Source: Escherichia phage Ecwhy_1. From it: a stretch of 64,000 nt of DNA. The translations under genes and the position numbers were made by a program. Every line of letters starts with the position of its first letter. The stretch's first letter is position 1. The stretch lies in sequence record MH791411.1. One strand, written 5' to 3'. The notes beneath the pieces are model-generated. The model worked only from the letters and a program-made list of their open reading frames with translations, did not search any database and was not told where the DNA came from. Positions 27,982-28,416 of this stretch are shown here, in pieces.

Positions 27982-28416
27982 TTAAGTTGACTGCTTCTTA
28001 ATTTCCTCAGCAGCAGAACGTGCCAATTCATCAGCAAGGTTATTATATACATTATCTGCGTGGGCCTTAACCCATTCAAATTTACAACCTGAACTGATAC
28101 TATCCAAAATTTGCCATAATTCTACGTTCTTAACGTTATTCCACTTTTTCTTTTTCCATCCAACAATCCATTCGTTCATCCCACGGACAACGTAGTTGGA
28201 ATCAGTGAAAACAGTAATATCTGGATTATCGTACACATCTTTAACATATTGAATACCAGCGATGGTAGCTTGTAGCTCCATCTTGTTATTCGTAGTCATT
28301 ATATCACCAAATGATAGTTTGTCCTGGACTTCGTTATCAACAATAACAACAATACCCACACCACCTGGTCCAGGGTTTCCAAGACATGAGCCATCAGTAT
28401 ATAAGTCTATTTTCAT
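27982..28416 (-). CDS. rnhA: ribonuclease HI (bacterial RnhA-type)
   Basis: [38 protein letters not shown]; start taken at MKIDLY, giving an ATGA overlap with the DHFR stop. Confidence 0.85.

Follow-up and report, generated by a model that had tools for sequence, protein, structure and literature searches.

Why would a phage encode two enzymes that both carry the name RNase H? The window analysed here, 64,000 nt of Escherichia phage Ecwhy_1 (record MH791411.1), holds on its minus strand both an RnhA-like RNase HI gene (27982..28416) and a gene for a FEN-family 5′-3′ exonuclease/flap endonuclease resembling T4 RNase H (59413..60399; hereafter FEN). A first-pass annotation had read this pairing as redundancy and had suggested that the RnhA-like enzyme has a role other than Okazaki primer removal, for example R-loop processing or countering host defences that use RNA-DNA hybrids. 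Our analysis indicates that the RNase HI is a single-domain enzyme predicted to be catalytically competent and most likely a non-essential accessory, which would clear longer RNA-DNA hybrids alongside the flap nuclease.

We began from the identity of the smaller gene. The minus-strand open reading frame spans 27982..28434, and the ATG at 28416..28414 yields a protein of 144 aa. A profile search against PF00075, which the first-pass annotation had proposed as a check, returned 124.5 bits against a gathering cutoff of 25.8 (E 4.8e-36), with residues 4-136 of the protein covering profile positions 5-140 of 141. The phrog_531 'RNase H' family matched at E 3.7e-49, and E. coli RNase HI was the top match among PDB sequences at E ~1e-31. 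The best NCBIfam model was the 'ribonuclease HI' equivalog NF001236, which covered the protein over its full length but scored 147.6 bits, below its 160-bit cutoff; the protein is therefore classed by the NCBI rule as a divergent member of the family rather than a strict equivalog. The motifs TTNNKMEL and FTDS are present, as is every motif quoted in the first-pass annotation. We accordingly assign the gene product as a type-1 RNase H, a single-domain RNase HI of the RnhA type. Two plus-strand open reading frames that overlap the gene (28262..28534 and 28386..28511) were treated as spurious, the minus frame being the one that has a profile match and shows purifying selection.

We located the catalytic residues by aligning the protein globally with E. 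coli RnhA, to which it is 45.7% identical. D10, E48, D70, H124 and D134 of the bacterial enzyme correspond to D8, E47, D72, H119 and D129 of the phage protein, and the DEDD carboxylates and the flexible-loop histidine are thus all kept. Across 120 database homologs, D8, E47 and D72 were invariant, and the position of D129 was occupied by D in 107 and by N in 13. Together with the PF00075 score, this complete catalytic set upholds the description of the gene as an RnhA-like RNase HI. One detail of that description had to be corrected: H119 and D129 are spaced as H-x9-D, not as the H-x-x-x-D that had been given.

The predicted structure agrees with this assignment. An AlphaFold2 model built from a 35-sequence alignment had a mean pLDDT of 95.7 with strands and helices in the expected order, and Foldseek matched it to E. 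coli RNase HI with a TM score of 0.86-0.88 and an rmsd of ~1.4 Å. The RNase H fold, a five-stranded mixed sheet with helices, is thereby recovered, and the protein also has the basic protrusion typical of RnhA-type enzymes. Compared with E. coli RnhA (PDB 2RN2, 1RNH), the phage protein has the same fold, DEDD+H set, TTNNxMEL motif, basic protrusion and a similar single-domain size; it differs by a 5-residue deletion in the handle loop ('TADKKP' region), by a 2-residue deletion before beta-strand 5, by the absence of the last ~6 C-terminal residues, and by being phage-encoded, between DHFR and Dda. The basic handle comprises W83-W101, with KKKK at 88-91. We considered whether its short loop was a phage-specific trait and rejected the idea, as the same 3-residue loop occurs in 61 of 122 aligned sequences, some of them from non-jumbo contigs.

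Comparison with the ortholog of phage 121Q gave a dN/dS of 0.11 at a dS of 0.89, comparable to the values of the neighbouring genes (DHFR, 0.06; Dda, 0.02). This ratio and the invariant catalytic residues led us to reject a decaying or inactive copy. A recent capture of host rnhA was likewise rejected: at 45.7% identity, the protein is no closer to E. coli RnhA than to the RNase HI of unrelated bacteria, and the conserved gene order across phage genera also speaks against such an origin. The RNase HI is thus predicted to be catalytically competent, with an intact active site under purifying selection. Judging from the conserved residues and the fold, D8, E47, D72 and D129 would hold two metal ions, H119 would assist catalysis in the manner of E. 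coli H124, the basic handle and a pocket formed by T42, N43 and N44 would grip the RNA-DNA hybrid, and the enzyme would cleave the RNA strand of hybrids containing ~4 or more ribonucleotides. By analogy, however, an intact active site does not prove that catalysis is the function under selection, because the RNase HI-domain protein of PhiKZ is essential independently of its nuclease activity.

The second enzyme is a 328-aa protein. PF02739 (5′-3′ exonuclease N-domain) matched it with 60.5 bits against a cutoff of 34.3 (E 2.2e-16), and phrog_107 'exonuclease' matched at E 1.5e-39. BLASTP against T4 rnh gave 28% identity over 225 aa (E 6e-15), and this divergence is accompanied by a ~20-residue insertion after the DxD motif of the FEN. 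In a HMMER comparison with PDB sequences, T4 RNase H (E 1e-5) and the T5 D15 flap endonuclease (E 2.9e-5) lay at nearly equal distance, and the best partial matches in NCBIfam were the Pol I N-terminus and Xni. When the acidic set of T4 RNase H (D19, D71, E130, D132, D155, D157, D197 and D200) was transferred to the FEN, seven of the eight active-site residues proved identical (D9, E119, D121, D142, D144, D202 and D205), and T4 D71 aligned in HMMER with E58. For the C-terminal helix-3-turn-helix DNA-binding domain of the family, the Pfam search at E<=0.01 returned neither of the models PF01367 and PF09293, and a GDxxDNV motif of that region aligns with T4 RNase H. Like T4 RNase H (PDB 1TFR) and T5 D15, the FEN has the PF02739 N-domain, the acidic residues that bind metal, and the motifs YKxNR and GDxxDNV. 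As judged from these comparisons, the FEN-family label is solid, and the 'T4-type' of the first-pass annotation seems fair but loose, with T5 D15 about equally distant. Neither of its two assignments, RNase HI or FEN, failed under profile search.

The RNase HI gene is set tightly into its surroundings. Directly upstream and transcribed in the same direction lies DHFR (28413..28934, minus strand; PF00186, E 2e-31; phrog_316), whose TGA stop codon overlaps the ATG of RNase HI in an ATGA at 28413..28416, legible as 'tcat' on the plus strand. Downstream follows a Dda-like SF1 helicase (26616..27959, minus strand; phrog_325, E 2e-122; AAA_30, PIF1 and UvrD_C_2 domains); 22 nt separate its start from the stop codon of RNase HI, and a GAGGGA ribosome-binding site precedes it. 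The overlap with DHFR and the position beside Dda had both been recognized in the first-pass annotation. Phage 121Q shares the 4-nt overlap between DHFR and RNase HI (CDS 4313..4825 and 3888..4316 in the 121Q segment compared), and GAP32 has a further overlap, between the stop codon of RNase HI and the start of dda. A sigma-70 promoter scan performed at chance (27 found versus 27.0 expected) and was uninformative on operon boundaries; no minus-strand terminator was detected within the DHFR-RNase HI-Dda block. Judging from the spacing, RNase HI, DHFR and the Dda helicase probably share one transcript. The T4 helicase Dda clears proteins from the path of the fork, and the tight coupling to Dda is consistent with, though no proof of, a role in replication-transcription conflicts.

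On a larger scale, the matching stretch of phage WPEC3 is annotated as a T4-like replication and nucleotide-metabolism region, comprising a clamp loader, topoisomerase II, a gp41-type helicase, a Toprim primase, a UvsW superfamily protein, UvsX, ribonucleotide reductase, a MazG-type pyrophosphohydrolase, DHFR, the Dda-like helicase and an IF3-like factor. The 2.7 kb around RNase HI are 99.2-99.4% identical to vB_Ec-M-J (99.4%), WPEC3, EC.P1, fEgEco12 and BF17, and ~83% identical to 121Q and PBECO4; the window accordingly derives from an E. coli phage of the 121Q/PBECO4 kind. Phages of the 121Q/PBECO4 kind are jumbo myoviruses of 350-385 kb, referred to as the 'Rak2-like' group. The RNase HI protein itself is 100% identical within the vB_Ec-M-J/WPEC3 sub-lineage, 85.7% identical to its 121Q counterpart, and ~49-57% identical to those of GAP32, CBB, BF and Xanthomonas relatives. 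The orthologs in 121Q (gp43), GAP32 (GAP32_309), CBB (CBB_314), PBECO4 and Serratia BF are this same gene, likewise placed between DHFR and Dda; each carries the annotation ribonuclease H or HI, and we found no difference of substance between these Rak2-like orthologs and the RNase HI of the window.

To place the gene more broadly, we searched phage genomes and viral contigs. By tblastn, relatives of the RNase HI occurred in 211 of 50,697 phage records; at E<=1e-15 there remained 65 records, essentially enterobacterial Rak2-like jumbo phages, in which the gene adjoins DHFR and/or Dda wherever annotation was shown. Among IMG/VR viral contigs, at least 583 stretches encode a relative (583 of the 600 candidates to which the search was limited), so that relatives are very common there. 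Isolate phage genomes do not often carry an RNase HI, yet the gene is far from rare. The order DHFR-RNase HI-Dda-IF3 appeared in 5 of the best 80 IMG/VR loci, all on Rak2-like contigs (four of ~355-366 kb and one of 41 kb); it is common to 121Q, GAP32 and these five contigs, although the proteins are only 48-57% identical.

The FEN was found in 104 records, which include all the groups behind the 65 RNase HI records as well as RaK2, K64-1 and Muenster, the PA5oct-like phages, Atu_ph07 and SCTP-2. Both enzymes are encoded in one genome in 121Q-like phages, PBECO4, GAP32, CBB, BF and the Erwinia pEa_SNUABM phages, and also in fHe-Yen9-03/04, 7t3, PHA46, EJP2 and XbC2. The record counts for RNase HI and FEN are equal in Escherichia (33/33) and Salmonella (8/8), and equal too in Yersinia, Serratia, Cronobacter and Pectobacterium. 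The survey of related phages that the first-pass annotation had recommended thus yielded many accessions carrying both genes. No FEN of this type lay within 10 kb of the RNase HI relative in the best 80 IMG/VR loci, a result that is silent on co-occurrence at genome scale.

The exception within the clade is the RaK2 lineage. In RaK2 the genes run in the same order, from a membrane protein through frd, X and dda to the more distant IF3 and ClpS, but X encodes a member of the Mom family (PF25680, E 4e-37) in place of RNase HI, and in K64-1 and Muenster the same DHFR-X-Dda position is also filled by a Mom-family gene. When six-frame open reading frames of the complete 345.8 kb RaK2 genome were compared with a profile from the RNase HI alignment, no RNase HI was found (best E 0.51, 7.4 bits), whereas the window, as the positive control, scored 235.8 bits; tblastn of RNase HI on the same genome gave nothing better than E 2.8. 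RaK2 nevertheless retains the FEN (annotated as rnh), together with gp61 primase, gp41 helicase, gp43 polymerase and ligase. Within the clade, the Mom gene is confined to eight RaK2-like Klebsiella records, and it is 65-73% identical to the Mom of unrelated Pantoea, Vibrio, Bacillus and Staphylococcus phages; for these reasons, Mom in the RaK2 lineage looks to have been acquired horizontally in place of RNase HI. The two genes do not exclude each other as a rule, since Vibrio phage F100 and its relatives carry both. RNase HI is dispensable in the Rak2-like clade, being absent from the whole RaK2 lineage.

These distributions bear on how the two nucleases divide their work. RNase HI requires ~4 ribonucleotides in a row and is unable to cut at the RNA-DNA junction, which makes a 5′-nuclease necessary as well; bacteria carry both kinds of enzyme, RnhA and the 5′-nuclease of Pol I. 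In E. coli, the main job of RnhA in vivo is the removal of R-loops, and Pol I does most of the primer excision. For T4, Hobbs and Nossal (1996) reportedly found that replication requires either T4 RNase H or host Pol I. By the same logic, the phage RNase HI would remove R-loops and the bulk of longer RNA primers, and the 5′-nuclease at 59413..60399 would remove junction ribonucleotides and flaps, a split that would mirror that between RnhA and the Pol I 5′-nuclease of bacteria. The phage enzyme would top up or replace host RnhA during infection, on a very large and heavily transcribed genome. Because the FEN is found throughout the listed relatives of the clade, the data suggest that it would be the primary remover of primers and flaps, with RNase HI as its helper; and because the RaK2 lineage lacks RNase HI and keeps the flap nuclease, RNase HI is probably not the primary remover of Okazaki primers. 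To this extent the first-pass annotation was right to look for a different role, but its argument from redundancy is weak: since RNase HI cannot cut the RNA-DNA junction, the two enzymes are not redundant, and their pairing is the normal cellular arrangement.

A narrower account within the same biology would make RNase HI a regulator of origins, which trims or removes origin R-loops and, with the adjacent Dda and the nearby UvsW, sets the point at which origin-dependent initiation yields to recombination-dependent replication, as may be compared with the processing of ColE1 RNA II and the R-loop origins of T4. Linkage of RNase HI to Dda is kept across the clade, down to the stop/start overlap in GAP32, and a complete T4-like set is encoded in the window (UvsW superfamily protein, UvsX, gp41-type helicase, Toprim primase and topoisomerase II). 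Furthermore, T4 oriG uses an RNA primer, according to the annotation of the T4 record, and depletion of the Goslar protein Rhc suggests a role in R-loop resolution (PMC13648698). RaK2, however, replicates without any RNase HI, and the scheme is plausible as a specialised case of hybrid clearance rather than as a separate mechanism; taken on its own, we regard it as unlikely. A related thought, to which we give only a slim chance, takes the DHFR-X-Dda position as an accessory slot that may be open to swapping, filled by RNase HI in most Rak2-like phages and by a horizontally acquired Mom gene in the RaK2 lineage. If the slot is a locus of conflict, RNase HI may be kept there against a hybrid-dependent function of the host or of a competitor and not for replication; alternatively, it may serve as a timing switch away from R-loop-primed origin replication.

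The suggestion in the first-pass annotation that RNase HI counters host defence fared poorly. In that reading, the enzyme would destroy hybrids used by host immunity, such as retron msDNA precursors, the cDNA of defence reverse transcriptases or guide-target hybrids. RNase HI is indeed a non-core gene in a swappable slot, which in RaK2, K64-1 and Muenster holds Mom, a classic anti-restriction function, and a phage copy would add to the supply of host RnhA. Against this, the host already provides the same activity, and the maturation of retron msDNA itself uses RNase H. The surrounding block of replication and nucleotide-metabolism genes keeps its order from genus to genus at ~50% identity, a pattern expected of housekeeping genes inherited vertically and not of an anti-defence island with fast turnover. 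Moreover, PADLOC returned no match at E<=0.01 for RNase HI, for FEN or for the small membrane ORF upstream; neither the AntiDefenseFinder paper nor a machine-learning survey of anti-defence mentions RNase H; the anti-retron protein Rad of T5 has been described with primase/helicase and Toprim/RNase domains, not RNase H; and we found no literature on RNase HI as an anti-defence factor. We therefore consider a counter-defence role highly improbable.

Chimalliviruses offer a parallel for the pairing, as Rhc and its equivalents (PhiKZ gp155, Goslar gp190) have an RNase HI-type domain and occur beside a separate T4 RNase H-like FEN gene: PhiKZ carries both types as 199 (FEN) and 155 (PMC12571901), and Goslar as gp177 (FEN) and gp190 (Rhc) (PMC13648698). 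Rhc is a protein of ~500 aa that binds the phage polymerase through a sliding-clamp-like domain at its C-terminus, whereas the RNase HI of the window consists of the 144-aa catalytic domain only; its chain stops at residue 144, directly behind the final RNase H helix, and we rejected an Rhc-like clamp fusion on this ground. That the enzyme might nonetheless act like these RNase H-clamp proteins, as a structural replisome factor independent of its nuclease, is suggested by the essential PhiKZ155, which a catalytic-dead mutant complements (PMC12571901), and by the binding of Rhc to the phage DNA polymerase (PMC13648698), but with strictly conserved catalytic residues, a bare domain devoid of the clamp portion that mediates Rhc localisation and polymerase binding, and a gp44-type clamp-loader gene of the phage's own, this reading is barely credible.

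Both genes have been recorded in related phages before. Nearly all annotated relatives list the smaller gene as RNase H, ribonuclease HI or rnhA, and the annotation note in GAP32 (JN882285) cites PF00075. In 2017, the CBB paper reported 'two ribonuclease H enzymes', one of them related to T4 rnh (CBB_272 and CBB_314; PMC5259590). Iyer et al. (2021) described RNase H1 in jumbo phages of group 1 and in several of subgroup 2.2, described the flap nuclease in most phages of subgroup 2.1 and in a few of 2.2, and assigned primer removal in jumbo phages to RNase H1 and/or the flap nuclease (PMC7824862). The pairing of RNase HI with FEN is thus already known, annotated and published, for Rak2-like phages.

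Collectively, our findings confirm that the public annotation of Rak2-like phages is correct on this point, and what they usefully add is the comparison across the clade, in which the FEN occurs across the listed relatives and RNase HI is expendable and, in one lineage, replaced. Jumbo phages that have a T4-like replisome possess the two-enzyme kit for removing primers and hybrids that cells also use, and the RaK2-like phages constitute a natural 'knockout' for what a phage RNase HI contributes.

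We compared the position between the DHFR gene (28413..28934) and the Dda-like helicase gene (26616..27959), which in the window holds the RNase HI gene (27982..28416, minus strand), with its counterparts in related jumbo phages. In Alcyoneusvirus phages such as RaK2, K64-1 and Muenster, this slot was occupied by a Mom-family DNA-modification gene rather than by RNase HI, an assignment supported by a match to PF25680 (E 4e-37). The RaK2 copy lies at 11506-12090 of the extracted RaK2 sequence L003, corresponding to 135505..136089 of the RaK2 record, and a search of the complete RaK2 genome detected no RNase HI. 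The slot Mom gene shares 65-73% identity with Mom genes carried by unrelated phages of Pantoea, Vibrio, Bacillus and Staphylococcus.

Alignment of the window RNase HI with its 120 closest homologs revealed that three of the four catalytic carboxylates were invariant in all 120, whereas the fourth catalytic aspartate (D129 in the window protein, D134 in E. coli) was replaced by asparagine in 13. An RNase HI relative with 47% identity was observed in Acinetobacter phage MD-2021a (CAKLQH020000022.1, 46518..46931), where the RNase HI stretch falls under a gene annotated as dnaQ / DNA polymerase III; this phage contig may carry an RNase H-DnaQ exonuclease fusion.

The window also encodes a homolog of translation initiation factor IF3 (25175..25678, minus strand) whose product contains both IF3_N (E 3.3e-16) and IF3_C (E 2.2e-12) domains. 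In 121Q, GAP32 and RaK2 this gene is conserved as the third one downstream of Dda, and RNase HI and the IF3 homolog occur together in the five syntenic IMG/VR contigs. The gene at 24616..25161 (minus strand) is named inconsistently among relatives: its counterpart is labelled 'DNA gyrase subunit A' in the closely related phage WPEC3 but 'ATP-dependent protease / ClpS adaptor' in 121Q, GAP32 and RaK2, and a Pfam scan of its product returned no match at E<=0.01.

The reading frame of the T4 RNase H-like FEN gene (59413..60399, minus strand) remains open for a further 24 codons upstream, up to an ATG at 60471 that serves as the start in the WPEC3 annotation and gives a longer span of 59413..60471. 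In 121Q and RaK2, as in the tblastn alignments of every relative, the protein instead begins at the methionine at 60399, which opens the sequence MKKLY and is probably the true start. Window and WPEC3 coordinates match exactly to about 50 kb and are offset by 178 bp at the FEN gene, indicating an indel within roughly 50000..59400.

The large terminase subunit (56580..58224, minus strand) is encoded by two ORFs of 114 aa (57880..58224) and 445 aa (56580..57917), which share 38 nt and are read in different frames; two CDSs are likewise annotated in WPEC3, whereas the RaK2 gp17 gene is undivided (2670 bp). A frameshift could account for the two-ORF arrangement, as could a split gene or a difference by insertion.
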